Part shown: one piece after another, positions 1-55,994 of the stretch | How positions within the stretch are numbered: the stretch's first letter is position 1 | Layout: each line of letters begins with the position of its first letter | Source of the DNA: Phoronis australis | Taxonomy: Eukaryota; Animalia; Phoronida | Reading direction: 5' to 3' | Assembly (NCBI GenBank): GCA_002633005.1 | Contig: NMRA01000045.1 | Location: 923,552 to 987,551 of the forward strand | DNA: 64,000 nucleotides | Translations under genes and position numbers: made by a program | The notes under the pieces: model-generated | Told to the model about the DNA's origin: nothing | What the model saw: the letters and a program-made list of their open reading frames with translations, nothing else | Databases searched by the model: none

Positions 1-773
1 TAAAACCAGCTGAATATTCATAGTGTTCCGTTTATTTGCCCCCTGATATGTAATATCGTGCTTAGAGCTGAAAATAATTTCAAAGTGATGTACCTAGATA
101 CTAATAAAAATGAACTAAAATACGGAATGTATAACTTTGGGGTGGACATTTAGCAGACGGACTATGGTATGAAAAATCAAGACAAAAACTGACAATAGGA
201 TATGACAATGTTTCTTGATAAATGGCCCCATTGTGGCATTAATGCTTTTGATAACAGTGGTGGCAATTGTGTTATTCCTTCTGCTTAGGGATAGGGTGCC
301 AGATGATCTCTGACCATGGTCAGATATAGTCCCACTGGGCCACTAAAGGGATTATCATTCCTTGTCAACTGGCAACATCAAGTTTAATGCGATTATCCTG
401 GGGCAGTGGATTGGAGAAGTGTATTTTGTATACAATTATCCAGTGGTTGTCACTGTCTGACTGAACTGTCTGACTGGTTCTTGTTTACTGCTGCCACTGC
501 AGAAACTGGAGCCCTGCAATTGCTCCTCGTTTTGCTGTGTTATAATATAGCATTACAGTCATTTTACTTGATCTAGGAGGGTTGATACAACATAGCTGAC
601 TGATGAGTGGTTTCCTTTGTTTAATTCTATTGTGAATGGGTCGTTGCTGATGACTTCTGTCTACAACACAGACAGTGTAGTTGGCTAATCCTGTGTGCTT
701 GACTGTGGATCACTGCAGAAAGATCCGGACTTGGAGATAGGATTTTTCAGCCTGTTAAGTCTACCTGTCGAAA

Positions 774-1937
774 ATGGGGTGTACTTGTTCAAAGCAATCA
801 ACTCGTAGGAGTACAAGTAAACAGGAAAAGGTGTCTGGAGAAAATGTCTCTGAAGTCGTTTCTATTGAGGAGGCGGCATGTGATAAGAGGATGGGTGACA
901 AGCTGGAACGCTTGGAGACTGATATATGTGGAAATAAGATGAGAAATGAGGCGAAGGATGGCTTAGGCAACAAGGAGATTTCACTGAATGTGGACGATGT
1001 TAGGGCAGTCTATGTCAAATGTTTGCCAGACACAGATGTGAGTCCTGAGATAGAATGCTGTGGGAGTACACTGTCGAATAGCTTGGAGACAGTGTGCCTT
1101 TTGAATGACAACTGTGAGGGTAGTCAGCATGAACTAAATGAGTTGTCTTCACAGAATGATATTTGCTACGCCAGTGTTCATCAATGTCCCAATATTTCAA
1201 CTGAAGAGTCGTGCAGTTCAGGTCATAATGGACAATATATGCCCCCATTTGCAGCCTGTGAGATATCAGAACAGAGTGCTAAGTTCACGGTGCCCCCGTC
1301 AATAACGTTCTCTCTGGTTGGCTACGAGAGCGGGAACGGCAACCTTGTGGCGACTGCCAGTGTCAACCCAGTTGTGTATGCGTCTCTACCAGTAGTCATT
1401 ACCGTCTCTACCAACAGTACTGATAAAGATGAAGATGAAAAAGGAGAAATGGTTGGCCAGTGCCAAGCACCCCAGAATAATGGAGTTGATATTACTACTG
1501 ATAACAACGAGGAAATCGGAGACAATAACCCGATGGATTACAAACTGAATTCACTAACATGGGATGTTTCTGCTGATGATGTTACCAGCACAACCTATGT
1601 AATCACGGAAACTGACTTGAGCTTTAATGTTGATTTGCACAATTTTGATGCTCCGCCAATACAGGGCATTTTGAAAACTAGGGCTCAGTCATCAAATTTT
1701 GCAAGACCAAAGAAGCGTGTTAGTTTCCCCGATGTTTTGGAAGATGTCGTCTGTATCGATACCCTCTCTGTGGGATCGATGTACGAAGAGGAGGATATTG
1801 GTGGTGTCATGGCCAATGGCAGCCATATTTGTGGCAGCCATGTTGATTGGAAAGATGCGTTAAGGTATTGGCAGTTAGACGGTTGTCCAGATCTGGATCG
1901 TGGGGTTGGTGACAGTTACCTGTGTCCTCGTCATCAG
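774..1937 (+). CDS. Candidate alternative first coding exon (388 codons): N-myristoylation/palmitoylation signal plus SILK-type and RVxF PP1-docking motifs
   Basis: aaaATGG start with in-frame TAA at 756-758; begins MGCTCSK; GILK at 1665-1676; KRVSF at 1713-1727; reads CPRHQ then CAG|GTAGTG donor at 1938 (phase 0), matching the phase-0 ACIDDN exon. The ORF continues unspliced to 2198. Confidence 0.7.
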
Positions 1938-4900
1938 GTAGTGTTTGATGATCTTGTTTCTGCTCTTGTTCTAAGTGTGTGTTCTATAACTAGGTGTTGT
2001 TATGATGCCCAGAACACATCAATATTTCAAGTTGAGTGCCTATCATGGGATCTTCGCATTCCCAGTTGGCGCGTGGCTAGGTCAGCGCTATTCAGTTGTG
2101 TGTCTGGTGTGTTTTGCATCATTTTAATGGAGGTTCGTGCAGTTTTGTTCATTTCTGCTGGATTCACATGGTCCCTTGTACATCTGGGACTCATTTAGCA
2201 CCCTCTTTGGAGGAAATTTTCACTTAGAAAAATACTATACCGTAATGAAACTAACATACTGAAGTTTCACTCACACTACAAAGTTCCACAGTTCGATTCT
2301 GTGGTTGTTCATTCATGCGTCCCTTCAAACAAGCCGGTAATTTCGCTATGGGGCCTTTCATTCTGCTATGAGCGGAGTGTTGATGTAAACTATGAAGTTA
2401 ATCGAATCGTTCATATTAGTTTCGGCAGTTAATGGCGTCGAAGTAAACGGTAGGTGATGCTGTCTTCATTGAAATAATCGCAAGGTAGTACCAATATATC
2501 CCGTGCACGTTAAATTTTTTTAAGCTGACAATTTGAGAACATTTAAGTAGTGTACTAATCAACATAAAACTTCTTTCTAGTTCGATTGATGACTATTCGA
2601 GCAAAATATATAAGCAACTATTAGTGGCGACACTGTCCTATAATTGTTGACGATAGCAGTGGCCTATAGTGATAACTACGATGAAACCAAAGTTGACCTT
2701 CATACCACTCCGCAGCGTCGATGCTCCGCTGTTAAATCCACCTGTTTACTGGGAAGTTAACTGGCGCTGTTAACTTCGATCCAGGAGACCGAAGTTAACC
2801 TTCATACTGAGCACAACTCTCCAAAACATGGAAGCGTTGACCTTAGTACAAAAGGGTCTCATAGTGTTGGATGCAGGTTTTACTGCATGGTCTGATGTTG
2901 CCATTTACCATGAATGTTTATTGTGTACAATTGTGTTGACTTTAGTGCCTTTGTGTGAACCCTTGGCTAAGATTATCTATTTATGTGGGAAAGGTGTTAT
3001 ATGTACTACAATGGATGTTCATGTCTCACTTCTTGGATCATGGTTGAAGTGTGTTTGTTCAGACTAGGCTGTGATGAACCTTACCTGTGGAAATGCTAGG
3101 TCCCTCAAAACTGGTATCGCCATGCATTACAACCGTTGCTTGTGATCGTACCAGCTTTTCTCGCAAGCGTCTTGGGTCCATGGAATATAGCACTGGTGGC
3201 AATGTAGTTGGCATTTGGGATGTTGACATTTTACTTAGTGATGATTTCTTTTATGGGAGTCATGTATGTTGTCATACACATGAAGTAGTTGTGTCTAGTG
3301 CTAATATTTGTTGCTTACAGAAAGGTTTTGTATAGCATGATCTATTCTTTAAATATAACTCATTGAATTTATGTGATGATGTGTGGCAGTGACGATGATG
3401 ATATGGTAATGATGTTCAGAAAAGTGAAATATCTTCTGAACAATGCCCACTCTTTTGTATATGTACACATGTGCTAAGTCTACACGATACACGGTGTCAA
3501 CAGTTCTTAACAACTCGCCATCTTGCAAAATGTTTCAAAGACAAAACAAAACAAAATAAAATCTGAATTTTAAAGCTCCTGTACATATCATACTCTGTGC
3601 AATTTCTTTAAGAGAGCTCCCCCATGAATTTACATATATGTTATACTGATGCTTGAGTTGTTTTGAGAATTGGTGCAGCTTCATTTCATCTGTCAAGAAA
3701 TTTGTAATTTCCCCACATCATATATCGTGACCGAGTGCATATGGTAATCATCTGAGTTTGATATATGTGATCTTTTTGTAGGCATGCATCGATGATAACC
3801 TGGACATGGTGGAGTTTCTAATAGAAAATGGTGCTGACATAGACGTGTGTGACAACGAGGGTTGGACGCCTCTCCACGCTACTGCCTCGTGTGGTTACTG
3901 TGAAATAGCCAGGTAAGCTTGATCAGCATCCACTTGTGTGAGTAGAATGCAGTTCCACTGTCTCATCCTTAAAGTGGCAGGTGACCTCTTTAAGGGGATC
4001 CGTCTGATCAGCCGTGTGATGATCTGGTCACGAGTCCACCGACAGATCTGCCTTCTTATTATTAAGATGCTGATGACACAATTCGTGATTACATTCTCTT
4101 TAGTTGTAGTGATACACGGGATTGCCCAAAATATTTGCATTTGGCATTTGACTATTAGGCCAAGCATTGTGCCAAATGCTGAAACTGGTGATTGGTTCAA
4201 ATTCGGTAGTGAATGCTGCATTTGACAGTTATCCTTGAAGCTGCTAGGTGTAAAGTTCACAATAGGTATATGTAGTGTAACGGTACATTCTTCTTGGTTC
4301 AGACTACATTTTCACGTGTTCGGGTCATGAAGTTGTTGTTCACTGGAAACATGAAGTAATTTACGGTAGTAGTGAAACATTTCCTGTCAATCCTGTCCTG
4401 TATGATTGCCAGAACAGCGGCTGTTACCTTTGTCCACCATTTGCAGGTTTCTCCTTGAATATGGTGCCAACGCTGCCGCCGTCAACAATGATGGTGACCT
4501 TGCTATTGATCTCGCAACCGAAAATGATATGGAAGAACTTCTGGCTGAATACATGGAAAAACAGCGTGAGTATCTGGCCCTGTGTGTCGTGCCCAAGGGG
4601 TCTCATCTTGAACGAGTTGGCGCTACTGCAATAGTCTCGGGGGTCTTAACCTTTAGAACCATTTTGATGCCTGTTATTCATTGGAGAAAACTGGTTCTTA
4701 AATCTGGGACCCTGTATGTGTCATATCAGCGCTCACACAGAAATTGTTAATGCTCGCATATAAAAGAGATTGATTGGAAAGTGCTGGCAAATGTATGTGT
4801 TTTCGGCAGTTTAGATATTGTTTTAGATGAGTGTTTAAGGTTTGTGGTATTGGTGATCCCATATCGGTGCTGTTTTGACTCTTTTTCCATCTCTGGTATC

Positions 4901-7900
4901 ATTTTAGGTTGGTCAGTGGCTTTGCTTTGGTAGTCATTTTCCCCAGTAGGCTATGTATTGCAGTGGTCCAATTTTCAAATGTTAGACAGCACCTCTCTAC
5001 CCAGTATGTGGAAGATGGTTGTTGAATAATGATTTTTGGTCCTAAATCATAGATTTTATTATCTGTGTGTACAGTTTTATACTGACTGAACTGCCTAGCC
5101 TATATAAGCGCTAGGATAATTATTTTTATGGCAAATTTTAGTATTTTGTAAAATAAAGTTGACCCTTATGTTGAGAGGAACAGACAAAAATTGGACAGTC
5201 GGCCAAAAGTCAAGTAAATGAACATTTCTAGCATGAGTTACCATAGTAAACAGTGATAAGTGTTTGCTATGCAGCACCATTACACGTGTGGTGTGTAAGA
5301 CCATCTGTACACCAACAGAATCATTAAACATTGCATACGGTTATCTTGTATCTCAAAATGCAAATAAGGCCGGTAAAGTTAGTGATAGCTGGGTCCACGT
5401 TCACCTTAAGCAAAAGGTGTCTGTCTTTTGAGGAGTTTCTCCATGATTTTTGTTACATTAAACGTAGAATATAAAAGCGAATACTCTAGATTGAGGTACT
5501 CTGGAAGCCGTTGGCTAGTAGGCATACTAACTATTAAGAGTTCTACAACATGGTGTTTTGTCTAGAATGCTGCTGTAGTTGTTATACTTTGCTGGAACAA
5601 TTTTCAATGTTACATTTTCAACTAGGGCTGAATTGGAACCTTTTGTGTACTTGTCTTCTGGTCATTAACCATAATTTCCACCCTTCCAGACGCACAAAAA
5701 TACAGTGGGAATTCCCCGATGTTAATGTTTGCCAAGACGGGAATTCTGTGGTAAAGTCAGTATAACAATTTCCCTACACAGAATTAAGTGTTAAAAACAA
5801 CTAATTCAGCATTTCTGCTGTATTTTTAGTGGACAAAAAGTACACTTGCCTTATACATTCATCCCATTTTTCCTCTTCTGCAGAAATTGATGCCGACTCG
5901 GCACGCAATGAGGAAGAGAACCGCATGCTGGCTGATGCCAACCAATGGCTGAATAATCGCAACGTACGCGAGAAGCCACACCCCAAGACCGGTGCGACGG
6001 CACTTCACGTGGCTGCTGCCAAGGGATACCTGAAAGTGATGCAGTAAGTCGTTAAGACCTCAGACTTTTTTCAAAAGCTGCACAAACGCGTGCAAGCAAG
6101 GTTTTAAATGCTGTGGCTTGCCAAGTTGGCCATAATGACAAATGGCCACCAGTTACTCTCCTTCTCTCACCCACGCACCACGAGTGCCTTCAGCCCCAGG
6201 GAAATGTAAATTGTACCTCTGGTGCTGGCGTGGGTGTTTCTTTTCTTGATCTCGCCTGGTTCAGTCATGCCAGACCATAACACAGATGTTCTGTCCTGGG
6301 AACAGTGCCTCCTTTGTGATGTTTTGTTAGCCTTTCTTCCCTGTCTGTTTATTCTTGACATTAGCAAACAAATGGCATAAAATCAACACTCAAAGTCTGT
6401 AGCCCTGAATTCCTCTTGCGGGCTGTGATTAGGAAGGTTGAACACTGAAATAAGATTAATGTATAGTGGCATCAGCTCTAATCCGAGCCCTTTTATGTTA
6501 TACACTTTTACGTCACAATCCTTGATCTCCCAGCTTATTGTGGCTGGTTGGTTACTAATTCTGTTGGTCATATCTTTTATGCCAGATTACCATAGTACTA
6601 CTCAATGCATGAGACATGACATCTTGTCCTACTGGCCTCCCATTTCCATGATGGTTTGAGTGTAAATTTTGGGTACGAAAAGCAACAACTCTCAATTTCT
6701 GAAAAAAGTCCTTGAGATTTCTTTCATTTATTTCCTATGTGGCTCAAATTTGATGCATAAAGCTCCCCTTTTGAGAAATTGCAACAAAAGTTTGAATACG
6801 TCTTAACGCAAATGATGGATGCAGGGTTATGCCAGATTCAGTTCAGGAGTGGGTTAAGCGCTACTTGACATAATATGCCCTGTAGTGGGTTAGGAGTCTC
6901 TCAAAAGAGACTGCTGGAGGTGATAGAAATAGCTTACTGTTATTTTGTGAGCCAGTTGGTCATCTGATGTTACCCTTCAGGCTGAGAACTGGCACTGGTT
7001 TACATAAGGGATTATAAAGTTTATGGTTTATGACGTCCAGAACCAGAAATTAAAACGAGTGACGTTGTGTGCCTGGCACACAGTTTCTAGCACTTCTCAA
7101 GTGGCAATGCGTCTAAGTAAACCTGGTGTTTGTTTATTAGCCATTATTTTCTTGTGGAAAGTAAAGAATGGATTTAAAAGGTGCGTTTATGTCCATTCTC
7201 TTCTCGAGTTCAATCCGTCTTCATGTAAGGTCAGCCTCGCACTTAAAAAGTTATTTTTTGTTTTATTTTTGGACTGAGGCATGTATTGAACAGTGGTGAG
7301 ACCCGAGTTTGACTCATATGTTCACTGGTAGATATAAAGTGTTGAGGTCCATCTGGAAAGTAGTTGTGAGATTACCTTCATTATAAATAATTTAATTTAA
7401 AAACCCTGTTTTCTTTTTAAACTGATGTGAAGTGAATGAAGCCATGTATATCAAAAAGTTTTGCACGCACGCACACACACACACACTTGTTCTAACCATT
7501 TCTGATAGTAGTCACAATGTGAAGTATACCTTTTCGCTACATGTCATTGGAGTAGCTGGGGGACAACATTCAACGCCCCCTACAGACTACCCCTGTAATA
7601 TTGGAAATTTATGGCAGTGTGTTTTTTAGCATCGTTTTAAATTCTTTGCCATCATCATGCCACTGTCAAATTACCACTGTCAAATCACCACTGTGGTGTA
7701 GTGAGATATTCAAATAGTCTACTTCAAGTGTCCACCATTGCAATATGTCCGTGAACAAAAGAAATAGTGTAACAGTTTTGTCTTTGCCAGCGCAGCCCGA
7801 CTTGCTCACCAAAGTTTGAAATTAGGTCAATGGAAAGTCGCTTTGACTTGTATATCGGATGTTCTATACAAGGAAGTGCTATTAGGAGCTGTCTGTTTCA

Positions 7901-10900
7901 CAGCTGTATAGTCTTTACTAGCCAGACTTAGGTGTGCACCTGTTGTGGGAAAAGTGCTATTGTTGCATTGTTCTTGTAATGAGTTTGTTCTGTAATCTGC
8001 ACTTGACATTCCAAACCACACTGTGTCTCATTCAGATAGAAGGGACTGACTACCTTTAGGCAGTTGGTCATCTGACTGTGGTTCAAATTTCAGTTGTCAT
8101 ATGAATTGTTACTTTAACTTTAGTTTGTACTCTGGCGGTTTGAAAAGGAATCATTCAGCATACAGCTCTTTAGCATTGTGAAAGCATACTTTACCCAGGT
8201 GTGCAAGACGGTAGGAGTTGACAGGAACAAAACGGAATTTCTTTCGTTCATTTGAATGTCTCACTGCGCAGCTGTGGCAATTTGACTGTATGATGGTCCC
8301 AAAGAATTCATAAAAAACGTTGCATTCAAGAATTGCAGAATACTGTCCACTATCATATGGCCATGTTTAAAGGTGTATTTCATCTGCTGACGTTGCAGCT
8401 ATTTCATTGCTGTGACTGCTGGTGCATACTGGCGGGTACTTTGAATTTTGTNTAGTAGGTAGGGATGTCATATCATATCTAAAATCCAGACCAGCGCAAT
8501 ACCTGAGCACTTGGAAAAGGTGTACCTGAAATGACATAAATTCATGACATACCACATTCAGTTCATCTTTGTGTTCTTTCTAAGTCATAGTACCCTCTCT
8601 GTTGATTTATTTTGTTCTTATTCTGTTGTCACATGTAAGACAATGAACAAGATTATACTAAGATGTCAGAAATTTTGGGCACAATATGGCAGACGTAATA
8701 AATTACATTTTTTCATATTTTCCATTAAAGGAACTTGGCAGGAAAAGTAATTTTCCAAAATCAGGCTCAACATGGAGCCTAAACTTGGAACCCCCGTAGT
8801 CTTAGTTCTATGTGCTCTGCTGGTGAAGCTAAATCCCAGTCGATAAATGGTAGAGTATTTTAAGCATTGTTAACTGGTGAAATCACCAGCCTTCATTACA
8901 AGGAATGTCTGGAAGACAAGAGCGACAATAGGCCATTTGTAGTAAAATCATAAAAACTCTACGGATTTTGTTGTTTTATAATTCTGGTCAAAGCAGTTAA
9001 TGTCTAGAAGTCAATCCTATCCCATAGCAATCCCAAAACTGCATTTTCTGCCAAGAAACCAAATGTGTTTCTTTTAAGTAAGTATGACCAAAGTTAGTTA
9101 CACACAATAGCTACCATTAAACAGCGTTTTATTAATGGGCACTCATGTCTATGTTAGATGCCTTTTAAAAGGAAGAAAGTCAATTTTGACTTTTATAAAA
9201 ATTTCTCAAAATTTTCCCATCCCTTTGTTCCATCTGATTCGTGGACATTGCTGAGTGCATGTTGCATTCGCTGTTTCTGCTTGCTGTTTAGTCAATGTCA
9301 ATATCTATCTCCTGCTGTGAAAGGAAAACTAGGTTATGCCATCTGGTGTTGATTTTGTTGGGAAGCCATGGTGCCTGGCTGAATGTAATATGAAAACAAA
9401 TACACCATGCATTAGTGGGTGGTAATCTATATTGAATAATAAACTATGACAACAGTGGGGGGTCAGCCCACCAGGACAGAATCATTAATAGTTTGTTCTG
9501 CCAACAGATTTTGCTATGCTAAAAGTATGTTTTTATCCATTTTGCTGATTACTGCAGCAACAATTAAACTTCGAGCCTAGTCACACTGAGCTCAGATTGT
9601 GCAAACTGTCTTAACATCTTGATAAAATGGACAGGAGATGGGAGAAGACTGGTAACTTTGACATTTGCCCACAGTGCAGAACTTAAAGCTGGTCCCACAA
9701 AAAAATTTCTTGCTTGTTTTCAAGGCTGTTATTAGGGCTATGCTAGTGTGCCAGGGCTGTTAAGTTCTGTACAGAAACTGACACAGGCTCTGCGGTTATT
9801 GAGGCCAAAAGCGATCCTTAAACCTTTTGCCTTGTAAGAGTAAGCAAAAATTTACATCAAAACATTTAACATACATATTTTAGAACAATCCATAAGATTT
9901 TCAAAACATGCCAACAGTAAACCCAATAGTATGCCCATGAGTGTACAGTTGGAAAATTTTCCAAAAATATGTCTATAGGTTGGGCGTGGGCCTATTTTCG
10001 GAAAGTCGCGGTTGTTGTTGAATTGGACTTGAAAATTGCTACCTCTGTGTATTGCTAATGCCATGTGTCAACTCTATCAAGTGTTGCAGTCACATATTGT
10101 TACACTGAAGTGAGTGCCAATGAAGGATTTTGGTTGCACTTAATATTCTGTGGCACTGAATTCATTCTGTTCATCCTTAAATTTTCATTGGCATGCATGA
10201 TACATTTTCTGTCCCTTTTTCCAGGATTTTACTTATGGCAGGCGTAGATATAGAAGCCAAAGACACTGACGGCTGGACGCCACTACACGCCGCTGCTCAC
10301 TGGGGCGAAGAAGAGGCCTGTAAACTACTAGTAGAGAACATGTGTAATATGGAGGCTAGGAATTATAGTGTAAGTACTGGCACCTATTGGTCAATGTTGG
10401 AACCAGGAGTTGTGCTTATGGTGCCACATGGTGGAGTGGGTTTATGAAGTACTAGTGAAGAATATGCAATACAGAACCAGGAATTAAAGTGTAAGTACTG
10501 GCACCTATTGGTCAATGGGGCAGCTGAGACTATGTATGTGCTGCCACATGGTGGTCAATGGTTGAAGAGTCATTGCACATGTATAGTCACATGATGGCTG
10601 GTGATTAAACTTGGGATTGCCTGATGAAGTCAGCAGATCAGGGATTGCTTGCTAGTCATTCCTTAACAAGTGAAATCGAGTAATCCCTAAGCCTATGATA
10701 TTCTTTGTGTATATTCCATTAATTAAAAGAGGTTGCATATTCAAATTTGTTGAATACAAAGATGACTAATTTGAGTTGCTTGACTGTAGAGAATTTTAGT
10801 TGTTGGAATATCTACTAAAGGAATGAACAATGCGAACCTGTAAAAAATGCATTCAGTGTCCTGTTATTGCAACTATTGTTTTTCAGGGTCAAACCTGTTT

Positions 10901-46900: not shown

Positions 46901-49900
46901 TTCTCAGAATGTGTTGGAGAGTGCAGTCTGAGACTAACCGGTCTCAGAAATATTGAAGTGGAATTTCTGACCTAAGCCCAAAGCACTTTAATGTGATGTC
47001 AAAAGTCAGTTTCATTTAGAATACTTTTTCATCATTTCATTAGTTATTCTTTATCAACCTGTAGTCTGGGACTATGTGTACTAATGCAGTTAATCTCAGT
47101 TGCTATCTGTATGAATAATGTTGATTTCTCATTATGGAACTCCGTTGCAAGTCTTTCTTATTAAACCTAGATGGCATAGTTGGATTTTGTATTATTGATT
47201 GAATATGTTTGTCGTATATCACGACCTCTAGCCGTAGCCCATCGGAATAGAGATACGGCAAATGTTCTTCAGTTCAGCACACGAGACGGTGATCATGTGC
47301 TGTTTAATTTTGTCAAATTTCTTCAAAATAATGAAAAAAATTGATTTCATCATCAGCAGGATCAATAGCAGTGATCACAAAACAACAATTTTGTTACGAG
47401 AGTTTGAGCATTTTAACAAATGTATCCATTAAATGTTATAAAAATGGAAAATTCCTATTTGACAAATATTTTTGTGCAAAGTTCAGGAGAGATTATCATA
47501 ACCTTTCCCCACTTAAGGTTTTTTTTTCAACTCTGACTTTGAGAGGAGTTGTGATGGCTGTTCTAGTCTAGGAGTTGCGCTTTCCCGCTGATCGGAGCTC
47601 TCTGTAGCACGGGAGTTTTGGTGCTGGTGGGAAAGAGGCATACGATTGCTGCGAATGGAGATATTGGTTGAAACTGCTTTTTCAACAGATCTTGATCACT
47701 GCTGTATGTCAGGCAGTCACTTGCAGGGATCCTGCATTTTAAGAACCAGTTCAATGCCTGTTTTTCAGGGGTGAATACTGGTTCTCAAAATGCAGGAAGC
47801 CTGTAAATGACTATTACTGCATCTCATGAACCACTTGGCATAATTTGTTTGAATTTACAAACATTGATTTTTTTGCTCTGCCTGAAGGGATTGATTATTC
47901 TGTACTGGCTTTTATGTTGTTAATGATAAGTGTATCCAACTTGAAATGCGAGTCGTTCTATAATTGAAATGCAAAGTAAGTAATCTGTGCCTGAGAACTA
48001 GTCTGCTTGTTATGTATCCCAGTCGCTTTAGGGGGGAGGTGTTTTATTCCTCCATGACATATGTACTAAGACTGGTGTTGCAAGTTGCCAGCAGTGTGGT
48101 GTAAAGGTTCTTCAATGCCACTGTAGGTGAGAGGGTAGTCAGTGCATATGTCCGTCATTGACATGCTGGCAACATTACCCAGTGGGTAATTTGTTTGCTG
48201 TGGGAAAATATCCACTGATAATTCATTCTAGAAAGCACTGGTTTTTCAATTCCTTGATTGGGAGAGGCCAATGAGTGCCGGTGTAATTAGGTAGAAAGTA
48301 GCACAATGAATATTCAATATATCATAGATGATGATAGCGTCACATAGATTTAAGAGTCGTTTTAGTACGGTAGGGAAAGCTAGTGCCTTCCTCCTCTATG
48401 AATGAAATGGTCCTACTGCATTAAGTGAGCGTGAATGGTTTTGCCTCGAAAGACTTTGTTTTGTAATTACAAATTGCCTTGGCAGTTTGAGTTATCGCCG
48501 AGGCATTTAAATCAAAAAAGTAATTGTTCTAGTGGTGTGCATTAAATCAAACCCAAGTTACAGTACTTACAAGACAAAAGCAATAGAGACAAAATTTTTC
48601 TCACCTTAAAGGATAATTCTGTTAATAGTAAAAATGACTGGCAATAAATATTAATGTGGCAAAATTTTGATTACAGAGTGGATTAGCTACCTCATTAACT
48701 TAACTGTTAATCTCCCTTCATTATCTCGGTCATGAAAACTGTGAGGATGAATTCAGTTTCTGCCCAGTCGTCGTGATAAGGAACTCCGGGTTTTTTTGTC
48801 TCATTACTTTTGGCATGTATTGTATGGTTGCTTGCAAGTTAAATTTCTTAAAACTCGGGGTTGGTGGGTGTTCAGTTCTATGTGGGCACTAATCCAAACA
48901 AAAACTGTAGCTTATTCTCGTTTCAGATATTTTTGTATTTTCAGTGGTTTCTTAACTTACGTTTCTGTTTTTCTTTGCAGTCTTCGTCGCGTTACAGTGA
49001 TCGCTATGGTGCTGGTGAAAGATCATCGTATAGCGACCGCTACTCATCCACCCGTTCTTCGACACGTGACGCTGACCGGCCGAGCAGTTCCTACAGGTAT
49101 TCCCGCGCCTCTACAACGGCTGCTGCCACAGAGTCGGAGTCGCAAGATTTCAAAAAGGTACGCAGGCTGACAGAAGTGTCTTTATGTTTTACTAGTGCAG
49201 TTTCATAACATAGAAAAAGCTTTTGGACTTATGTAGTTGTTTTTAGCTGAAGAACAAATGGAACAATCAGCACTTGGGTATTCGTTATTATCGATATCGT
49301 GTTATTAACTTCAAATAATTTGTTGTTACTTACGGAAATCACCTGTCAGTGAGTGCTGATAACTCAAACAGTCCCTCACAGTGAAGTTAAGCAGGTCATG
49401 TTAACATTTGGCGGAACTATGAAGTTGACCATCATCACCAAGTGCTCACCTGTTTGTGTTCCCTTAGTGACTAAATCTGTTATTCGCCTTTGCTTGTCTC
49501 CTTATTTCCGCTGGTGACTTGTCCAGTAAAACCTCACCAATTTAGGACAAAATGTGTCGGGAGAAGTGAAATTTTATTTTTTTTTTGTTTTTCCATGAAA
49601 GTAAGAAACTCCGAATTTATGCATTTCCTTGTTCAAGTTTTGTACCATAGCTGTCATCAGACAAAATTCTGAAAATTTTTAGACATTCTCAACAATGTTC
49701 GGAAACTTTGAAAAATGAATAAGGTCGGTTTTGACAATTATTTTGGCAGAGTTTGGTGTTATTTAACCGCTGATGAGGTCAAATTTGATATGAGTGTTAG
49801 CAAAGTATTGGTTGTTTTCTTTTATTGATGTGACCTAACGCTAGAATTGTGTGAATATTCAAGTAAACACACAAACTCTAGTCTGTCTCTGTTTCCAGTT

Positions 49901-52900
49901 ATACGATGAACAAAAAGCCGAGAATGAACGTATAAAGAAAGAGTTAACCAAAGTCCAAAAAGAATACGCCGACTGTAAAACAGAACTAGAAAAAACCAAG
50001 TCAAGCCAAAGTCGATTAGGCAATTCAATGGATCAAAGAGTGAGTGTCATGCCTGCAAATCACCGGGTGGGGGGGTGTCTTTTGCATCTTCATAGACCAC
50101 AGCTTTGCAACTCAATTTCATGTGGAATTCACAGAAGCGGTGCCACTTCCTGGTTAGTGGGCAGACGACTTACCGTGACTAACACCAGGTGGCGCTTATG
50201 AATACTGACTTCACGGCCAATGGTGTTGGTGGTGTCTTGTGCGTACGATCACAGGTTTTGTTCACTGAGGATATACAGAGTTGTCAGTCCACATAGTATA
50301 GTTAACGGTTTAGTGAAAGTGACTTAAAGACTTAAGACAGAAATTTGGTGTTGGGAATCAATAATCAAAACTCACTTTAGCTTATCAACAAAGTATTTGA
50401 GAATATACCCATAACTGCTACTTACTGGGAAAAGTTGTACAAATTCTTTGCAGTCAGTGGTACACTAATAATTACATGACAACGGTTATTTGGTAATTGT
50501 GAAGTGAGAGCATTAGACCAAATTTCAGTCTTGGTCACTGTTCATGAAGCAGACCCCAGCATACATTAGCGACAGTACGAGGTGTTGTATTTGCTTTGTA
50601 TTATCATCTGCTTAATACTCTTGATATCTTCATTTTAGTCATGAAATACAACTACATTGTTGTATCCATTAGACTAAGAGCCACTTAAAATTGAGAATCT
50701 GGGAGTTGTAGTCATGCCGAGTACAACTGAATCAGTGGTGTTGTTGAACTAGAGCTAGGCGTTGAGGCAATGTGAACATTAGTATGAACGGATAAAGTGT
50801 TGTTAGTCAATATGTTTGTAAGGCGGTGCTGTTGTGGCATTTTTGTTGGCAAGATTCTCTGATGGCGGGACAATGTTTTCTGTATGTCTGTGCCATGTCT
50901 AAATGCCATTAGTTTTGCCAGGGTTGTCTAACCCTTCCAAGATTAGACTATTTTGTGTCAATCACAGGTGATATCACAGTTGAGTTCATTTTGATGAAAG
51001 AAATAGCTTGCTTTCATGGCAAATAAAATTTGAAATCGGTTAATCAGGGTATTTCTAGATGTCCATGTTTGACCTAAAGTAAAAAGTAAATTCCCGTTGA
51101 TTTAATGGCAGAAAGTTTGCTTAATATTGAGCTTATTTAATGACAGGTAAATGAGAAAGTAGTGAGTGTTGTTAATCTAATACATTTGTTACTTCAGGAG
51201 AAGAGGACATTAGAACGGAAGATATCTGAAATGGAGGAAGAGCTCAAGGTACGCAATACTGTCAATCTAATGTCACACTTTTTTCATCGCAACCAAACGT
51301 TTTATGACTGATGGTGTTTCGGCTGTTGTTAGGAACATCTTAACGGTCAAGAAAGTTTCGTCTGAAATCTTGTTTTTGTCTGTGAAATTGGTGTTACTTT
51401 GTGTCTCCTCGGCCGCATTACACAGCGACCCTTGGCACTGTTTACCCATAATGCCACAATATCCATCAAACCAGTTTGAAATCTTGTTTTTGTGCCATTG
51501 TAGCTTCTCATATAATGTGTTGGTGTCCTGCATTTTACAAGTTTCACTTTATTGCATTAACTATATACGACATTCCACTGTCAGGTTTTACTGCTGAGCT
51601 GTAGGCCACAACTCTGATGGCAGAAAGTTTGATAAACAATTCGTGAATGCATGTTTTCCAACGTGATGCCCAGAATCACTCCGACATTTTCAAAGTGAGA
51701 GCGCTTTCTCACCTCTGGACAAAAGAGAGTCCAATGGGTAACGGTCGTATTATGGCTTACTATGACTGGGTTTGACTAGCCTACGTTACTCTTGGTAAAC
51801 ACATTGAAACAATTCCTTTGCTTTTTCTCAAAGTTACTCTTGCCAATGGATTAAATGTTCGATAAAATCTCACTCCTGTCTCCAGTATAGTGGGAATGTT
51901 TTATTTTGTTGTGAAATGAATCAGAAAGTACCATAGTGTATAATGTAATATAAAAGCCAGTAAGCAAAAGTTAAAAATTTGAGGTCAGAATTCACTTCAG
52001 AGTTTTAACATGTTGTTTTTGACATAGCTTAACATTTGTCCCCACTTTTGAAAAGGCGTGAGCATCATCAATACATATATGTATGTTTGAAAAACATTTC
52101 TAGATGTATTGCTTTAAGGGCGTGAATTGGACTGTTAGCTGATCTGTTGCTTGTCTTGTGCAGGATATATAGTTCTTAAGACTTAGTGGCACTGCCATTA
52201 ATACAGATTCTGTTACTGGCAAATTTTCTTAAAGACCGACACAGGGCCAGTTGAGTCGTGTCAGAAGCATAGATCTCAAAACTGCAATAAATCAAAATTT
52301 AGGTGTCAAATCGAGGCCTGCAAGCAATTGGTGAACTCCACTGCATGCCACGGTTAACAGAAGTTCCCGGGTTTGAGTCCCATCGGGGCAGAATTTTTTC
52401 AGACTTATGTTCATTAGGTCACGTGATGTGGCCAACAGGTGGCATGCAGACCATACATGAAATTTTTGTGATCTATATTTCTACGCCGATTCAAGATTTA
52501 CATATTTATGTACACTCAGAAGTTTATGGGCTGAATGCCTTCTAGATTTCTGTGTTCAACTAGTGGTCCCGATCACTCAGTGGCCTTGATTGTTCTCACG
52601 GTTAGCAGGTCTCGGGTTCAAGTCCCGGTTGGGGGAGAAATCTTTTCAGGTCACGTGATGTGGCCAACAGGTGGCGTGCAGACCAGACAAAAAGGTTCGT
52701 GATGGACCTGTTTTATTGGCAGTGGAACTGATATATTACATATGCTTGCTACATGAGCAGATTTTTAATGGTCATGATGGCCCTAAGGATTATCAATGTC
52801 AGTTGACAGTTTCCATGATATAAATTTTTACTAAAGCTTATTGAAGTAATTGTCTAAATGCTGCACGTGCCTCTGTGATATTGCAAGTAGCTAGGAGCTC

Positions 52901-55900
52901 TCCCCGCAATGTACGTGTGAAGATGCTGTCTGAATCTTGGTCAAATTTATTTTGAAAGTTGTTATGCATGCCGTCGCAACTGCACAGCCCTTCATCCCAA
53001 CTGTGTTGATTTTCATGAAGACTTTGGCTTATGTTGCATCTTGCTGGAGCTTCCCTTGTGTTCTTTCAGCCAATGGAATCGTTAAAACTGGACAACGCTA
53101 AGTTAGTAGAAGAGAACCACACCCTTTTATGCGAAATAGACAAATTGTCAAAACCATAGGTAAAACTGAAATCGAAATCCAGGTACTCACCAAGCAAGCA
53201 TAGGGCATGCTCTGACCTCTGACCTACTGGTTCATTGGTGGTTTATCATTTGGCATTGGCGTATGCAGTAGGGAATACCTGCAGACCTACAGTCAAAGGG
53301 ACATTCAGTGCTTACGGAGTGCTGTACATTTATAGCTTGATGGCATTGCAGTCACTATAAACTAAAGCAGCTTGCCTTCAGATGTGTCAATATTTGAGAA
53401 AAGCGACCAATTAGGAAATAAGCTCTTAGTAGTCTTTTTATGTTGTTTTTCAATGAAAAAAAAATAAAAGCAATACAGAGAATATCAACTTAATGTTAAA
53501 CTCTTGTTTGATTTCCATCTCTTTAGCTCCTGGGTTGTCATAGTTGGATACAAATTGGGCTTTGCATGGCTGATAATATGCAGGCAGGCGGCTTTTGGCA
53601 AATAATTGAGCATGTACACACACTAGATGTGTCGTTGTGGAACTGTGCCATGTTGTTTCCATCACCCGGTTTTCTTGTTTGCCAAAACCTGAAGGTAGAC
53701 AGTTTTCCTTTCTCGCACTATGCAGGCATTCTCATCATGTTTGCTTCTCGTGCGTACAGTCCTTTTTTCACCAGCTGTAGTTTAGTCATGAGCTGCAGTT
53801 CTTTTCACTCTCTTTCACTTTCTGTCAGACAGGAAGCATGAGCAAGCATGCTTGTTGCAGGGTATCAAACCTGTCTCTGACTACATACTTCAACTCAGTG
53901 GTGTTTATGGGAAACCGTAGTGCGTGATAAGAAATAGAAATCGTAAGGATGGAATGCCCCAGCTTTCCATAAGGGATATGGATGATCTCCCTTGAACCAC
54001 TCGTTGTGCAATTTCCGAGTTTATTCATTATTCAAGAGCTTACTGAACATCCTTTTTGTGCTCCCACATATACATGTATGTGAGTGTACACTGCCGTCAT
54101 CTTTCTCTGGATATCCGAGCATCGGGCGTCCACTGCCGTTATCTCCTAAACCCCTCGCACAATCTTAATGAGATTTTGGCACATGAGTTCCTATGAAGTT
54201 TATTATTACAGATGGCAACATGTTTCAGACTAATCCGACTACTGCTATGCCCTCTAGTGGCAGATAGGTTTCTATTAAGAAGATGACGATGCCATTGTTT
54301 TTTCGGAGGGCTTCAACATATTTATGTTGTCTTGTGGCCATTTTTGTTATTTTTGAGTCCCATTTTCTGGCATCCGGCTCTTTATACACCAAAGCGGTCA
54401 AAAGATCACCTTGAAAATTTGCAGATATGTTCCTGATGAGAAGACATATGGCTGACGTTGATTTTCGGATGGACTTGACTTCTACGTCACCCCCTAGTGG
54501 TGATATTGTGCATCCGCACCCATATCTTCTTAACTCTTTGAAGGAGCTTTGTGAAATTTGGCAGATGCGTTCTTATGGAGCTGGCGACAGGTGATGACGA
54601 GTTTCGGACTGATCCATATACCGCTGTGCCTCCTAGTGGCCAGTTTTGTTTTGTGTTTGCCTGTGTATCTTCGGAATTCATCTATGGATTTTCATGAAAT
54701 TTGGCAAATAGGTTTCTACTAATGAGATGAAGATTTCTTTCCATTTTCACATGGATTCAACTTATTTGCACTACCTAATGGCAAATCGCTCAAAGGATTA
54801 TGAAAATTGGCAGACATGTTCCATGGTTTACAATTTTTGGACAGGTTCAAATGCTATGACGCCCCCTAATGTCAATTTTTTGCATTTTGTGGCTGTATCT
54901 CCTTAATCCTTTGTAGGATCTTTTTCAAATTTTGGCAAGTGTTTTGATTTGAATGTGACCATGGCTTTTCAATGACAACCACTGTGCCCCTTAGCAGAAT
55001 TTTAGTTTTTACTTATGCCTTTGTATCTTCAGAGTTCCTTCATGAAATTTGGTGATAGGTTTAAGTTTTGGAGACGATAGCACCATTCCATTTTGGACAG
55101 ATTTGACATGTTCTGCACCATCTAGTGGCCATTTTTATTATTTTTAGTCTTGATTTTGTCGTCTGTCTCTGTATTTGCGGAAGTGCTTTGAGGATCATCA
55201 TGAAAATTGACAATTTTTTTGCCCTGACTGATAATTTTCAGACTAGTCCAACTACTTAGGTGTTCGCAACTGGCATTTCTTGCATCTGTGACTGTTTCCC
55301 CTGAGCTCCGTGCAAGATCTTTGTTAAATTTGGCAAATGTATTCCCATTAACTTGACAACAAATGAACAGATACAATTACGGCTCTGCCTCCTAGTGGAA
55401 TGTGATTTTACTTTAGTTGCCACTGTGTCTTTTAACTTTCTCGATGGATTTTTATAAAATATTGCAAATAATTTTCTATTAGGGAGACAACGATGCCTTC
55501 CAATTTTCAGACAGGTTTGTTATATCCTGCGCCTTATTTTTATGATAATTAACACAGTCCCCCTAGAAACTTGTTGTTTGCGGTGCAGTCGTGGGCACAT
55601 TTCAGTGCTTTGCATTGCGCTCGTTACTTCAGGTAGTTGGTATGTTTTATAAAGTTTCACCCGTGGCATCTCATTCATTTGTCTCAGTCTGTGATTGGTT
55701 ACTTGTTTAATGGTCTTAATGTTGCCCTTGTTCCAATGCTCTGTCTTAGCCTCCTGATTTTCGTGTGTAGTTGTGTTTCTTAAAGGAGGTGATTACGTTC
55801 CAGCACCTGTTCAGTGTCCAGTATTTCCCACTGTTACCTGTTGTCACTGCCAGTTGGTAGGGTGTATTCAGCCTCATCTTGATTCCGTGTGCATTTTCTC

Positions 55901-55994
55901 ATTGCAGCAAATGGAATTACTCAAACAGGATAACCAGAGGCTCAAGGAGGAGAACGGAGCATTAATACGTGTCATCAGCAAGTTGTCCAAGTGA
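774..55994 (+). CDS. PPP1R12A: Protein phosphatase 1 regulatory subunit 12 / myosin phosphatase targeting subunit (MYPT1-like, Mbs); multi-exon gene span, canonical exon 1 not in window
   Basis: Spliced translation gives ankyrin repeats (ACIDDNLDMVEFLIENGAD..WTPLH), RDEETETQRKLRARRARETRRSTQGVT, DFKKLY..ERKISEMEEELK and the terminal DNQRLKEENGALIRVISKLSK, all hallmark MYPT motifs. Exon phases are consistent throughout. The paralogue letter (A/B/C) is not meaningful for an invertebrate. Confidence 0.95.
3782..3912 (+). CDS. PPP1R12A: MYPT ankyrin exon (ACIDDNLDMVEFLIENGADIDVCDNEGWTPLHATASCGYCEIA)
   Basis: tttttgtag acceptor, ag|gtaagc donor, phase 0-2; ankyrin TPLH motif. Confidence 0.95.
4447..4565 (+). 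CDS. PPP1R12A: MYPT ankyrin exon (FLLEYGANAAAVNNDGDLAIDLATENDMEELLAEYMEKQ)
   Basis: ttgcag acceptor, c|gtgagt donor, phase 2-1. Confidence 0.95.
5884..6043 (+). CDS. PPP1R12A: MYPT exon (IDADSARNEEENRMLADANQWL..GATALHVAAAKGYLKVM)
   Basis: ctgcag acceptor, ca|gtaagt donor, phase 1-2; ankyrin TALHVAAAKG. Confidence 0.95.
9853..10011 (+). mobile_element. Truncated second copy of the 13472-13831 MITE
   Basis: acatacatattttagaacaatc..ttggaaaattttccaaaaatatg..ttttcggaaagtcgcggt aligns by eye with 13680-13831. Confidence 0.6.
10225..10369 (+). CDS. PPP1R12A: MYPT ankyrin exon (ILLMAGVDIEAKDTDGWTPLHAAAHWGEEEACKLLVENMCNMEARNYS)
   Basis: ttccag acceptor, agt|gtaagt donor, phase 2-0. Confidence 0.95.
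10325..10555 (+). repeat. Degenerate ~121-bp tandem duplication spanning an exon donor
   Basis: aggaatta(t/a)agt|gtaagtactggcacctattggtcaatg at donors 10370 and 10491; tgccacatggtgg also repeated. Confidence 0.85.
10887..10961 (+). CDS. PPP1R12A: MYPT exon (GQTCFDVADDDLLKLLEDLKIKQAS)
   Basis: tttcag acceptor, tcg|gtaagt donor, phase 0-0; matches the MYPT GQTxFDVAD motif. Confidence 0.93.
11587..11657 (+). CDS. PPP1R12A: MYPT exon (RREDSKKEIPHLDIIETKHPMKR)
   Basis: tttcag acceptor, ag|gtaagt donor, phase 0-2 bridges the flanking exons. Confidence 0.85.
11830..12397. mobile_element. Fold-back MITE with TTAA target duplication (Kolobok-like termini)
   Basis: TTAA|GGTTATCT...AGATAACC|TTAA; arms remain imperfectly complementary for about 250 bp (e.g. 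gaaaggagaaaaatcgaggattctaaaaatatgct / agcatatttttagaatcctcgatctttctcctttc). Confidence 0.85.
13472..13831. mobile_element. MITE, TA-flanked (Tc1/mariner-like)
   Basis: TACCGGGAATTTCGGAAAA...TTTTCGGAAATTCTCGGTA inverted termini; 3' part recurs at about 9853-10011. Confidence 0.7.
14028..14042 (+). CDS. Candidate 15-nt microexon (R-DSDK-R)
   Basis: pyrimidine tract plus gtag acceptor, ag|gtgaga donor, symmetric phase 2-2, no stop. Confidence 0.35.
14468..14512 (+). CDS. Candidate 45-nt cassette exon (SSYRELAGLNTAVNK)
   Basis: ttcctttctacctgttag acceptor, aa|gtaatt donor, symmetric phase 2-2, open frame. Confidence 0.5.
15159..15262 (+). mobile_element. Degenerate tRNA-derived SINE head
   Basis: gtggcc A-box-like start and GGTTCGAATC B-box at 15206-15215; no complete cloverleaf. 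Confidence 0.4.
16575..16768 (+). CDS. PPP1R12A: MYPT exon (TSITRMSMDQKQHINLGDVHEERQKME..SSSSEESSSDSET), acidic/Ser-rich region
   Basis: ttgtag acceptor, g|gtgagc donor, phase 2-1. Confidence 0.9.
17585..17666. repeat. Degenerate pentanucleotide (ATTGT/ATCAT) simple repeat
   Basis: direct reading. Confidence 0.7.
18416..18471 (+). CDS. PPP1R12A: MYPT exon (VSEKQNELNPQLLAKPVTQ); in-frame alternative acceptor 6 nt downstream (exon start 18422)
   Basis: ttcag acceptor, cag|gtgagt donor, phase 1-0 required between neighbours. Confidence 0.8.
18948..19349 (+). CDS. PPP1R12A: MYPT low-complexity E/K/P/S/T-rich exon (EKVQENDKKPEQ..VVPSTK); symmetric, possibly cassette
   Basis: gctag acceptor, aag|gttgta donor, 402 nt open frame, phase 0-0. 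Confidence 0.8.
19782..20021 (+). CDS. PPP1R12A: MYPT charged exon (VDETPSEPEK..RRRRRRQLKEEAE..EVADE)
   Basis: cccag acceptor, gag|gtaagt donor, 240 nt, phase 0-0. Confidence 0.85.
21654..21743 (+). CDS. PPP1R12A: MYPT exon (DPQEPAVSNEVPAKEPLHRTASLPARLSRQ); acceptor could instead give a start at 21663
   Basis: pyrimidine tract plus aag/cag acceptor, cag|gtaaga donor, phase 0-0; LxRTASLP basophilic-kinase/14-3-3-type motif. Confidence 0.75.
22741..22938 (+). CDS. PPP1R12A: MYPT exon (..SWRAGLRKAGSSSAV..VQKSASSPWL..), Ser445/Ser472-equivalent region
   Basis: gctag acceptor, gat|gtaagt donor, phase 0-0; resembles vertebrate WRLGLRKTGS and RSASSPRL. Confidence 0.9.
23794..23891 (+). CDS. PPP1R12A: MYPT exon (TQERSYRRQYLSSTSSVPENPPENPPEITTRN)
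   Basis: tttcag acceptor, ag|gtaagt donor, phase 0-2. Confidence 0.8.
25534..25713 (+). CDS. PPP1R12A: MYPT exon (NTYPYLSRVQTSSST..RRRQEREAEREKER..SFR)
   Basis: ttgtag acceptor, ag|gtgacg donor, phase 2-2. Confidence 0.85.
27273..27363 (+). CDS. PPP1R12A: MYPT exon with the inhibitory ROCK site (SFEPPKRDEETETQRKLRARRARETRRSTQ; Ser695/Thr696-equivalent)
   Basis: gttcag acceptor, cag|gtcagt donor, phase 2-0; hallmark motif. Confidence 0.95.
27892..28005 (+). repeat. 35-bp tandem repeat (3 units plus partial) copying the splice acceptor and first codons of the GVT exon
   Basis: GGTGTTACC begins at 27892, 27927, 27962 and 27997, each preceded by AG. Confidence 0.95.
27997..28173 (+). CDS. PPP1R12A: MYPT exon (GVTKEDVAAAEATLQL..RRRRDYSTKV); donor after 28170 or 28173
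   Basis: completes RRSTQ|GVT; ctacag acceptor; gta|gtaggt donor; phase 0-0. Confidence 0.88.
28987..29080 (+). CDS. PPP1R12A: MYPT exon (DDTANLSASTNSFRRSRDYAATTTTDLSSST)
   Basis: attcag acceptor, g|gtaaag donor, phase 0-1. Confidence 0.85.
31679..31876 (+). CDS. PPP1R12A: MYPT exon (GYIPRSQRLSAQ..poly-T..SYRQRQLAAEEDK..KKE)
   Basis: gctaac branch-like site, ttctag acceptor, g|gtgagt donor, phase 1-1. Confidence 0.88.
32957..33054 (+). CDS. PPP1R12A: Mutually exclusive exon A (DANNGLDPHERRLASIRERRRERRSSALAQNIN); Thr853-region variant RRSS
   Basis: ttgcag acceptor, aat|gtaagt donor, phase 1-0; resembles vertebrate SIRERRRPREKRRSTG. Confidence 0.85.
33195..33295 (+). CDS. PPP1R12A: Mutually exclusive exon B (DDLFSGRSSSGIRARRRRIERRPTGKVPSDISED); Thr853-region variant RRPT
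   Basis: ACTAAC branch point at 33165-33170, gtag acceptor, gat|gtaagt donor, phase 1-0. Confidence 0.85.
34103..34598. mobile_element. Non-autonomous DNA transposon with CAGGG termini (hAT-like)
   Basis: 13-bp perfect TIR CAGGGCTTGGAAT...ATTCCAAGCCCTG; subterminal TTTCCGC repeats; TCTAAT direct repeat on both flanks. Confidence 0.85.
35345..35410 (+). CDS. PPP1R12A: MYPT exon (AKEDSTEETKKEPAKTEPEDTS)
   Basis: ccgcag acceptor, tcg|gtaagt donor, phase 0-0. Confidence 0.85.
35781..35875 (+). repeat. 31-bp minisatellite x3
   Basis: tgattcttatgtactgtcattatctgtagtt repeated three times. Confidence 0.9.
36726..37484 (+). repeat. 379-bp direct duplication separated by a single N (probable assembly artefact)
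   Basis: 36726-37104 vs 37106-37484, only two substitutions seen; N at 37105. Confidence 0.9.
37986..38237 (+). CDS. Possible 252-nt cassette exon (IGTDLEELAHCLSMLKSDQ..KSISIQTQDE..HRLD)
   Basis: ccttgctcag acceptor, gac|gtaggt donor, phase 0-0, open frame; no family similarity recognised. Confidence 0.3.
39879..39965 (+). promoter_or_regulatory. Candidate internal (muscle-type) promoter/enhancer: TATAAAT and MEF2 consensus CTATTTATAG
   Basis: TATAAAT at 39879-39885; GGCTATTTATAGCC with YTAW4TAR core at 39956-39965; E-boxes CATCTG/CACCTG just downstream; about 1 kb upstream of the internal ATG. Confidence 0.4.
40942..41283 (+). CDS. Candidate internal first coding exon (114 codons, Y/G/S/P low complexity) of a short M20/M21-like isoform
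   Basis: accaccATG context; in-frame TGA at 40921 with no AG between it and the ATG; GC-rich coding-like composition; agt|gtaagt phase-0 donor fits exon 48981. Confidence 0.8.
46147..46172. repeat. (TG)n microsatellite
   Basis: direct reading; another at about 22241-22259. Confidence 0.9.
47715..47812. repeat. Inverted repeat/hairpin, 36-bp arms
   Basis: agtcacttgcagggatcctgcattttaagaaccagt pairs with actggttctcaaaatgcaggaagcctgtaaatgact (5 mismatches). Confidence 0.8.
48981..49157 (+). CDS. PPP1R12A: MYPT exon (SSSRYSDRYGAGERSSYSDRY..SQDFKK)
   Basis: ctttgcag acceptor, aag|gtacgc donor, phase 0-0; DFKK motif. Confidence 0.93.
49899..50039 (+). CDS. PPP1R12A: MYPT coiled-coil exon (LYDEQKAENERIKKEL..SMDQR)
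   Basis: ttccag acceptor, aga|gtgagt donor, phase 0-0. Confidence 0.93.
51198..51248 (+). CDS. PPP1R12A: MYPT exon (EKRTLERKISEMEEELK)
   Basis: cttcag acceptor, aag|gtacgc donor; near-identical to vertebrate ERRALERRISEMEEELK. Confidence 0.95.
52349..52693 (+). mobile_element. Two adjacent tRNA-derived SINE-like fragments
   Basis: B-box-like GGTTCAAGTCC / GGTTTGAGTCC, each followed by a shared aggtcacgtgatgtggccaacaggtggc(a/g)tgcagacca. Confidence 0.55.
53070..53159 (+). CDS. Duplicated alternative leucine-zipper exon (PMESLKLDNAKLVEENHTLLCEIDKLSKP*)
   Basis: ttcccttgtgttctttcag acceptor, phase 0; 16/28 residues identical to the last exon; stop TAG immediately followed by GTAAAA (possible donor). 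Confidence 0.85.
   Translation, partial: PMESLKLDNAKLVEENHTLLCEIDKLSKP
54053..55625 (+). mobile_element. Helentron/HINE-like non-autonomous element with internal degenerate tandem array
   Basis: 5' ttttTGTGCTCCCAC and 3' subterminal GTGGGCACA inverted pair followed by a short hairpin; repeated gaaatttggcagat and ccctagtgg motifs inside. Confidence 0.6.
55908..55994 (+). CDS. PPP1R12A: MYPT canonical last coding exon, leucine zipper (QMELLKQDNQRLKEENGALIRVISKLSK*)
   Basis: ttgcag acceptor; hallmark PKG-interacting C-terminus. Confidence 0.97.
   Translation, partial: QMELLKQDNQRLKEENGALIRVISKLSK

Follow-up and report, generated by a model that had tools for sequence, protein, structure and literature searches.

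A phoronid PPP1R12 gene with duplicated zipper exons, a spliced micro-exon and a likely internal first exon

The human M21 subunit (hs-M21) arises from an intronic promoter of PPP1R12B. This gene (MYPT2, M20/M21) combines ankyrin repeats, two basic phospho-site exons, a coiled coil and short forms that start past the second site. It also carries duplicated C-terminal zipper exons, a duplication described as Bilaterian, with a Drosophila orthologue (PMC8373072). A further source treats M20/M21 as a subunit of unclear function and describes vertebrate PPP1R12A (MYPT1) as having central-insert cassettes, a zipper switch in which a 31-nt exon shifts the frame and so removes the zipper, and, in the human gene, a rare testis-used start in intron 1 whose exon is non-coding and removes PP1 docking (PMC9367544). 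Drosophila Mbs and other protostome MYPT genes have A/B zipper ends and many central cassettes, with RefSeq isoforms running up to X23-X26. The TIMAP/MYPT3 roles belong in vertebrates to the PPP1R16 family (PMC5087845) and in flies to a separate prenylated gene, MYPT-75D. PPP1R16A/B and MYPT-75D are lipid-anchored PP1-ankyrin scaffolds, prenylated and without a Rok site (PMC10568788).

We have analysed a 64,000-nucleotide stretch of the Phoronis australis genome (contig NMRA01000045.1, forward-strand positions 923,552 to 987,551; hereafter the window) and find that its + strand, from 3782 to ~57400, is a PPP1R12 (MYPT/Mbs) gene without canonical exon 1, which lies upstream of the window. The gene resembles PPP1R12B in its ankyrins, its two basic phospho-site exons, its coiled coil, its duplicated zipper exons and a predicted short form starting past the second site, and differs from it in a short-form first exon that is 114 aa long and Ser/Tyr/Gly-rich where the vertebrate one is 34 aa and not alignable, in a second zipper that has diverged to acidic, and in additional candidate exons at 774 and 32957. 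Central cassettes and A/B zipper ends are shared with protostome MYPT genes, although the relatives compared have neither a second exon for the T853-type site nor a long myristoylated N-terminus like the candidates here. PPP1R12A is similar in its central-insert cassettes, its zipper switch and its intron-1 start, but the window has a zipper pair in place of the frameshift exon, and the candidate exon at 774 would replace PP1 docking and not remove it. Spliced to the gene, that exon would mimic the lipid-anchored scaffolds, with the anchor at the N-terminus and with ROCK sites and zipper kept. From this standpoint, the locus is an ordinary lophotrochozoan MYPT/Mbs gene with an ancient zipper exon pair and a conserved internal first exon, and the remaining proposed switches are candidates.

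Gene identity, main transcript and cassettes

An in-frame chain of 28 candidate exons runs from 3782 to 55994 (Table 1), with the sole stop lying inside 36214-36252. The N-terminal ankyrin array is recognized by Pfam Ank matches on spliced exons, with 58-73% identity to 16 MYPT relatives over the ankyrin exons. Two ROCK-type sites follow, RRSTQ at 27273-27363 (T696 equivalent) and RRPTG at 33195-33295 (T853 equivalent), and the C-terminal coiled coil and leucine zipper (PRKG1_interact) are identified by Pfam and joined by RNA junctions. The prenylation motif that replaces the zipper in PPP1R16 proteins is not seen, since both alternative ends are zippers, and the presence of ROCK-type sites likewise separates the gene from that family. 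The fourth exon has its best relatives in Lottia, Haliotis and Patella (79-83% identity). The ankyrin tree has no well-supported branch and places the window loosely with molluscs, and the central motifs of the gene are annelid-like.

Table 1. Exons and candidate exons of the PPP1R12 gene in the window
Position	Strand	Feature	Basis
774-1937	+	candidate alternative first exon, 388 aa	ORF beyond chance, coding signal, weak donor
3782-3912, 4447-4565, 5884-6043, 10225-10369, 10887-10961	+	ankyrin exons	RNA junctions, Pfam ankyrin
11587-11657	+	exon ending with first half of conserved RRxS motif	RNA junctions
14028-14042	+	alternatively spliced 15-nt micro-exon	RNA junctions, boundaries
14468-14512	+	45-nt symmetric cassette candidate	splice signals and frame
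16575-16768, 18416-18471, 18948-19349, 19782-20021	+	central exons	RNA junctions
21654-21743, 22741-22938, 23794-23891, 24084-24138, 25565-25713	+	central-insert exons, likely cassettes	frame check
27273-27363	+	exon with first ROCK-type inhibitory site RRSTQ	61-85% identity to relatives
27997-28170, 28987-29080, 31679-31876	+	exons	tblastn, frame check
32957-33054 (98 nt)	+	candidate mutually exclusive partner exon (RRERRSSA)	phase match, strong donor, codon score
33195-33295 (101 nt)	+	exon with second ROCK-type site RRPTG	top homologue-profile match
35345-35410	+	66-nt acidic exon ahead of internal-promoter intron	frame check
40942-41283	+	first coding exon inside the gene, Ser/Tyr/Gly-rich (114 aa), with motif SRSGSTSSLSSIGS	homologues, X4 coverage
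48981-49157, 49899-50039, 51198-51248	+	Ser/Arg linker and coiled-coil exons	RNA junctions, Pfam PRKG1_interact
53070-53159	+	diverged duplicate zipper exon, own stop, GT donor directly after	homology, core positions
55908-57400	+	canonical zipper exon (coding to 55994) and 3' UTR	junction reads, UTR depth 12-30x

RNA evidence came from three stranded raw runs of one study (X2-X4, of each of which 18-19% was read) and a contig set (X1), all under the matching species label, and the mapping covered window positions 1-20000 and 37500-57400. Listed spliced junctions account for 12 introns, nine at the 5' end, all constitutive, and three at the 3' end. In the main transcript, the ankyrin exons, the tested central exons, the coiled coil and the canonical zipper are spliced together. 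From family knowledge, its protein would dock PP1 on myosin, be inhibited by ROCK at RRSTQ and bind PKG or M20 through its zipper. The 5' junctions have 0-2 reads in X4 against 11-13 for the 3' junctions, and X1 contigs, whose depth is a poor measure, have ~20x over 5' exons and 46x over 3' exons.

Earlier, a sequence-only reading of the window had proposed several symmetric cassettes. One of them, 36214-36252, is ruled out by its in-frame stop, but a 15-nt micro-exon that we add to the set is confirmed by RNA: inclusion and skipping are supported by 9 and 9 reads in X2 and by 3 and 3 in X3, that is ~50% inclusion. The micro-exon inserts five residues within the RRxS motif just past the ankyrin region, a motif found in 88 of the 144 compared proteins longer than 600 aa, and so amounts to an RNA-confirmed alteration of a predicted kinase site. 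The 45-nt candidate has no junction among the best 15 of 27 RNA junction entries. Cassettes are the rule across the MYPT family, and segments resembling the 21654, 22741 and 25565 exons are skipped in mollusc isoforms (Haliotis, Bradybaena, Liolophura). The closest match to the 22741 exon is in a locus (L024, 59% identity) that, like Capitella, has RRPTG. Exons 23794, 24084 and 25565 have phases 0-2, 2-0 and 0-2, which would permit pairwise skipping without frameshift.

Several further observations concern the sequence around these exons. Sense depth across the intron that surrounds the micro-exon (11658-16574) is ~2-6x in several bins of X2 and X3, above that of other introns, and may reflect slow splicing, retention or early poly(A) addition giving an ankyrin-only form; nine AATAAA/ATTAAA hexamers lie within it. 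The 10225-10369 exon has its 3' end and donor repeated ~120 bases downstream (10350-10560). Three 35-base tandem copies at 27886-28006 span the acceptor of the 27997 exon and supply spare acceptors upstream. A 300-base near-identical direct repeat with 380-base spacing surrounds an N at 37105 (36726-37405) and resembles an assembly join. Beyond the gene, 58000-60000 is rich in GC and CpG, carries several ORFs on each strand and gave no convincing Pfam match; it may be a repeat or a neighbouring gene's promoter.

The zipper exon pair and the internal first exon

The two zipper exons are homologous. Both match Pfam PRKG1_interact (53070-53159, E 0.0035; 55908-55994, E 2e-12), and the 53070 exon retains all 8 of its a/d core positions as against 6 of 17 others (p=0.003), while its zipper has a net charge of -2 compared with +2 for the 55908 zipper. 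The kept core and the charge suggest, at the level of sequence, that the diverged copy has been under selection. Its scores against A-type and B-type profiles are equal (25.1 and 23.1 bits), and it has lost the B-type residues. Among 313 related proteins we count 39 distinct A-type and 10 distinct B-type ends, and both types occur within single species in insects, abalone, chiton and crayfish, so that alternative use of the tandem duplicates is seen in relatives. In an oyster model B precedes A, the order found in the window, and the human alternative PPP1R12B zipper exon is of B type. A PDB search with the zipper returned only Par-4 (E 0.31).

The proposal of an alternative zipper partner is therefore borne out as a homologous and ancient exon pair, and the duplication itself is already known (PMC8373072); the 53070 exon, however, has no listed reads. 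Junctions to 55908 have 34, 14 and 11 reads in the three runs, amounting to 59 of 59 listed terminal reads, and the 3' UTR of this exon reaches at least 57300. No junction to 53070 is among those listed, and its use would be at most ~9% if two reads per run lay below threshold. The GT immediately after the stop at 53159 fits a cassette that carries its own stop, though this donor is weak. We envisage that the 53070 exon would be a rarely included cassette through which a basic zipper is exchanged for an acidic one.

The exon at 40942 had been read as the start of a PP1-less short form. It has an ATG, an in-frame stop upstream, phase 0 and a donor in the top 0.9%, and the predicted product of 265 aa is M20/M21-like, without RVxF or ankyrins and with coiled coil and zipper kept. 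We searched short proteins with a MYPT tail for relatives (481 matches, best 120 inspected). Similar exons occupy the same position in Capitella, Mytilus (mussel) and Magallana (oyster), all as gene models and not cDNAs; the Capitella model starts with its Ser/Tyr/Gly exon, and the mussel and oyster models contain one internally. The pattern SR[SA][GS]ST[SN]SL occurs in 3 of 313 proteins, which are precisely these models, and their alignment scores with the 40942 exon are attained 0, 1 and 5 times in 1000 shuffles. The Capitella gene is annotated as two consecutive models divided at the intron of this exon. Thus, as for M20/M21, a predicted first exon inside the gene precedes the retained coiled coil and zipper, with homologues in two phyla.

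Vertebrate short forms are related to this arrangement in position. Among the 120 best matches, 65 are vertebrate proteins of <240 aa that start like the PPP1R12B short form, and vertebrate PPP1R12B short forms join at the same relative position as the 40942 exon. In a crayfish model, a Ser-rich first exon lies at a comparable place, and its similarity to the 40942 exon is compositional only. Alignments of the exon to vertebrate and crayfish short-form N-termini have scores reached by 139, 312 and 431 of 1000 shuffles, and, as the likeness does not go beyond composition, convergence is possible. No short form occurs among the 19 listed members of three Haliotis clusters. Two abalone and limpet isoforms (P0132, P0138) have a 15-17 aa cassette in the intron homologous to that of the 40942 exon. 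In the literature covered, which does not include a 2014 survey of the diversity of MYPT subunits or the review that accompanies it, we found no invertebrate M20/M21 and no lophotrochozoan exon of that type described, and no invertebrate Mbs exon pair apart from the zipper pair (PMC8373072).

The region of the internal exon is transcribed in X4. Sense depth in this run rises through 2.0, 4.2 and 5.1x over 39492-41483 and drops to 0.16x in the next bin, placing the beginning of the transcribed region at ~39500-40100; the exon itself is covered 4-7x in X4, whose 5' exons are nearly silent. The same interval has 0.2-1.2x in X2 and X3, and X1 contributes a 23x contig at 40167-40473. Among the junctions listed (X1-X4, 37500-57400), none starts at 41283, and X4 depth is 0 at 49025-49044, so the splice that would make the short form remains predicted; the X1 contig is unbroken at 48981. 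The X4 coverage could come from 3' bias or an unrelated transcript. The linker and coiled-coil exons from 48981 to 51248 are joined by 28/15/4 and 43/16/13 reads in the three runs. The first of them, 48981-49157, is symmetric and shallower than the next exon in X2 and X4, and may be skipped, notably in the short form.

The conserved internal exon likely makes an M20/M21-like subunit, which would make that subunit older than vertebrates. We propose that a promoter in the intron past 35410, active in certain tissues or stages, would yield a product of ~265 aa that has a Ser-rich phospho-cluster, the coiled coil and the zipper but lacks a PP1 site. As a third subunit it may bind full-length MYPT by way of its coiled coil and zipper, or it may compete for zipper partners.

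An alternative reading is that there is one dominant isoform and that, cassettes aside, the alternatives are decaying relics or chance ORFs, the 40-41 kb coverage being intronic or from a separate RNA. The uniform use of 55908 in the listed reads, the lack of a listed junction from 1937 or 41283 and the loss of B-type residues at 53070 all fit it. We nevertheless find it improbable, given the selectively kept heptad core of 53070, the conservation of the internal exon in two phyla, the half-included micro-exon and a 479-codon ORF beyond chance at the 5' end. Our preferred reading, which we hold to be probable, is a PPP1R12 gene in which the zipper exon is duplicated, a micro-exon is alternatively spliced and a first exon inside the gene likely leads to a short M20/M21-like protein, in a layout that is likely bilaterian-ancestral and kept by human PPP1R12B.

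Candidate exons upstream and at the second kinase site

The sequence-only reading had placed an alternative PP1-docking exon at 774-1937, and the DNA there is indeed coding and has suitable motifs. The exon is part of a 479-codon open frame (759-2195) for which ~1e-9 occurrences are expected by chance in the window, and codon usage exceeds the intron level in 5 of 5 blocks as far as 1937. The translation opens with MGCTCS, presumably a myristoyl/palmitoyl site, and continues to GILK (aa 298) and KKRVSF (aa 313), which we take to be PP1-docking motifs, with an acidic Cys-rich linker. The rest of the proposal fares less well. We found no homologue among 5234 candidates, no match in 53 metagenome stretches, no Pfam family, nothing useful in the Atlas (best score 0.77) and no similar ORF in 22.9 kb of intron-1 DNA from 14 loci (4 of 14 introns complete). 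A repeat-rich match (E 3e-6 over 32 aa) was judged to be chance. Descent from canonical exon 1 is unsupported: the comparison gives 4.2 bits, a score that 69 of 1000 shuffles reach with RVxF held fixed, and the apparent likeness of the tails is explained by RVxF alone.

Where this exon ends bears on what it is. No stop interrupts the frame before 2195, the 1937 donor is weak (its score is reached by 18% of all GT sites), and the 1937-3782 junction is absent among the best 15 of 27 junction entries, all of which would suit a nested single-exon gene at 774-2195, or one spliced elsewhere, encoding a separate lipid-anchored PP1 interactor and not a MYPT N-terminus. Directly past 1937, however, codon scores fall to the intron level (-0.54 and -0.74, against a null of -0.60 +/- 0.21) and the T fraction goes up from 27% to 40%, so an exon ending near 1937 is favoured over a nested gene. 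The exon ends in HQ at phase 0, as canonical exon 1 does, and the exon end at 19349, whose donor is confirmed, scores little better (2.3 versus 1.7). We accordingly regard the separate interactor as unlikely.

RNA over 774-1937 is at background, with a summed depth of 340 bases in X2, 527 in X3 and 0 in X4 and X1 (depth 0-0.8x, against 16-20x on exon 2). Such silence in three samples is no refutation, since human PPP1R12A has a rare testis intron-1 start (PMC9367544). Judged from its sequence, 774-1937 is a plausible candidate for a tissue-restricted, lineage-specific first exon, the case for it being about evenly balanced.

A second candidate switch, of kinase input, concerns the exons at 32957 and 33195. 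They lie 140 nt apart, share AG/GTAAGT ends and run from phase 1 to phase 0, such that including both or neither breaks the frame, as expected of a mutually exclusive pair. In a search with the homologue profile of the T853-type site, which bears on their supposed origin by duplication, the 33195 exon is top at 31.4 bits, identifying it as the orthologous exon, but the 32957 exon scores just 6.5 bits and ranks fourth, below the T696 exon and an Arg-rich stretch. Its donor nonetheless ranks in the top 0.4%, and no higher codon score was measured. The RRPTG of the 33195 exon is common to Capitella; none of the compared relatives has two forms at this site, and tblastn with the two exons against 80 loci matched neither. 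One X1 contig (contig 2) has 67 unaligned bases upstream of 48980, a length which, by arithmetic, hints at the 66-nt exon, counted without a single shared base, together with the two terminal bases common to both kinase exons, at an assembly-graph fork. On sequence grounds we lean modestly towards a swap of kinase input here. If used, the 32957 exon would change RRPT to RRSS and regain the neighbouring serine that corresponds to human MYPT1 Ser852, a PKA/PKG target (PMC7333668). Both this exon and that at 774 are probably lineage-specific additions of uncertain use.

Coordination of the choices and the ancestral layout

The sequence-only reading had gone further and viewed the whole locus as a combinatorial system in which all four alternatives are used, arose by duplication and are coordinated by cell type, with one gene replacing MYPT1/2, MBS85, TIMAP/MYPT3 and M20. 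All its coordinates are correct, and the four exons it named exist with plausible signals, if with unequal support; RNA use is shown for 55908, the tested constitutive exons and the micro-exon, but not for 774-1937 or 53070. The imbalance between 5' and 3' junctions in X4, with coverage of the internal exon in that run, and the resemblance of the predicted lipid-anchor motif in the 774 ORF to a membrane-targeted MYPT are what such a model would lead one to expect. Construction by duplication, however, is established for the zipper pair alone, and neither 53070 nor the 774 exon has a listed junction. In X4, the run with internal-start coverage, all 11 listed junction reads into a zipper exon go to the canonical one, a hint against coordinated choices, which we suppose would most likely be regulated separately and not as one programme. 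The gene does hold the modules of MYPT1/2, MBS85 and M20/M21, but in a layout that mirrors the single gene PPP1R12B, and a TIMAP/MYPT3 role in the same gene is contradicted in flies by the separate MYPT-75D (PMC10568788). We therefore consider the full model very unlikely. The modules are mostly real, and the picture they give is of an ancestral bilaterian layout retained in PPP1R12B, with no invertebrate invention.

A broader history can be put forward tentatively, although we doubt that all of its parts will hold together: M20/M21 would predate the protostome-deuterostome split, would be made in annelids, molluscs and crustaceans from an internal promoter lying in one and the same intron, and would be tissue-switched and carry a conserved phospho-motif in lophotrochozoans, to which this lineage would have added a myristoylated SILK/RVxF exon, giving a membrane MYPT, and an exon swapping RRPT for RRSS. 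A membrane-anchored N-terminus of MYPT1 type, at present a candidate only, would if true be a new way of targeting myosin phosphatase. An invertebrate M20/M21 with its own first exon could be deleted in annelids and molluscs without touching the long form, making the role of this subunit directly testable. For the family as a whole, the layout described here recasts PPP1R12B, and not MYPT1, as the gene nearest to the likely ancestral arrangement.
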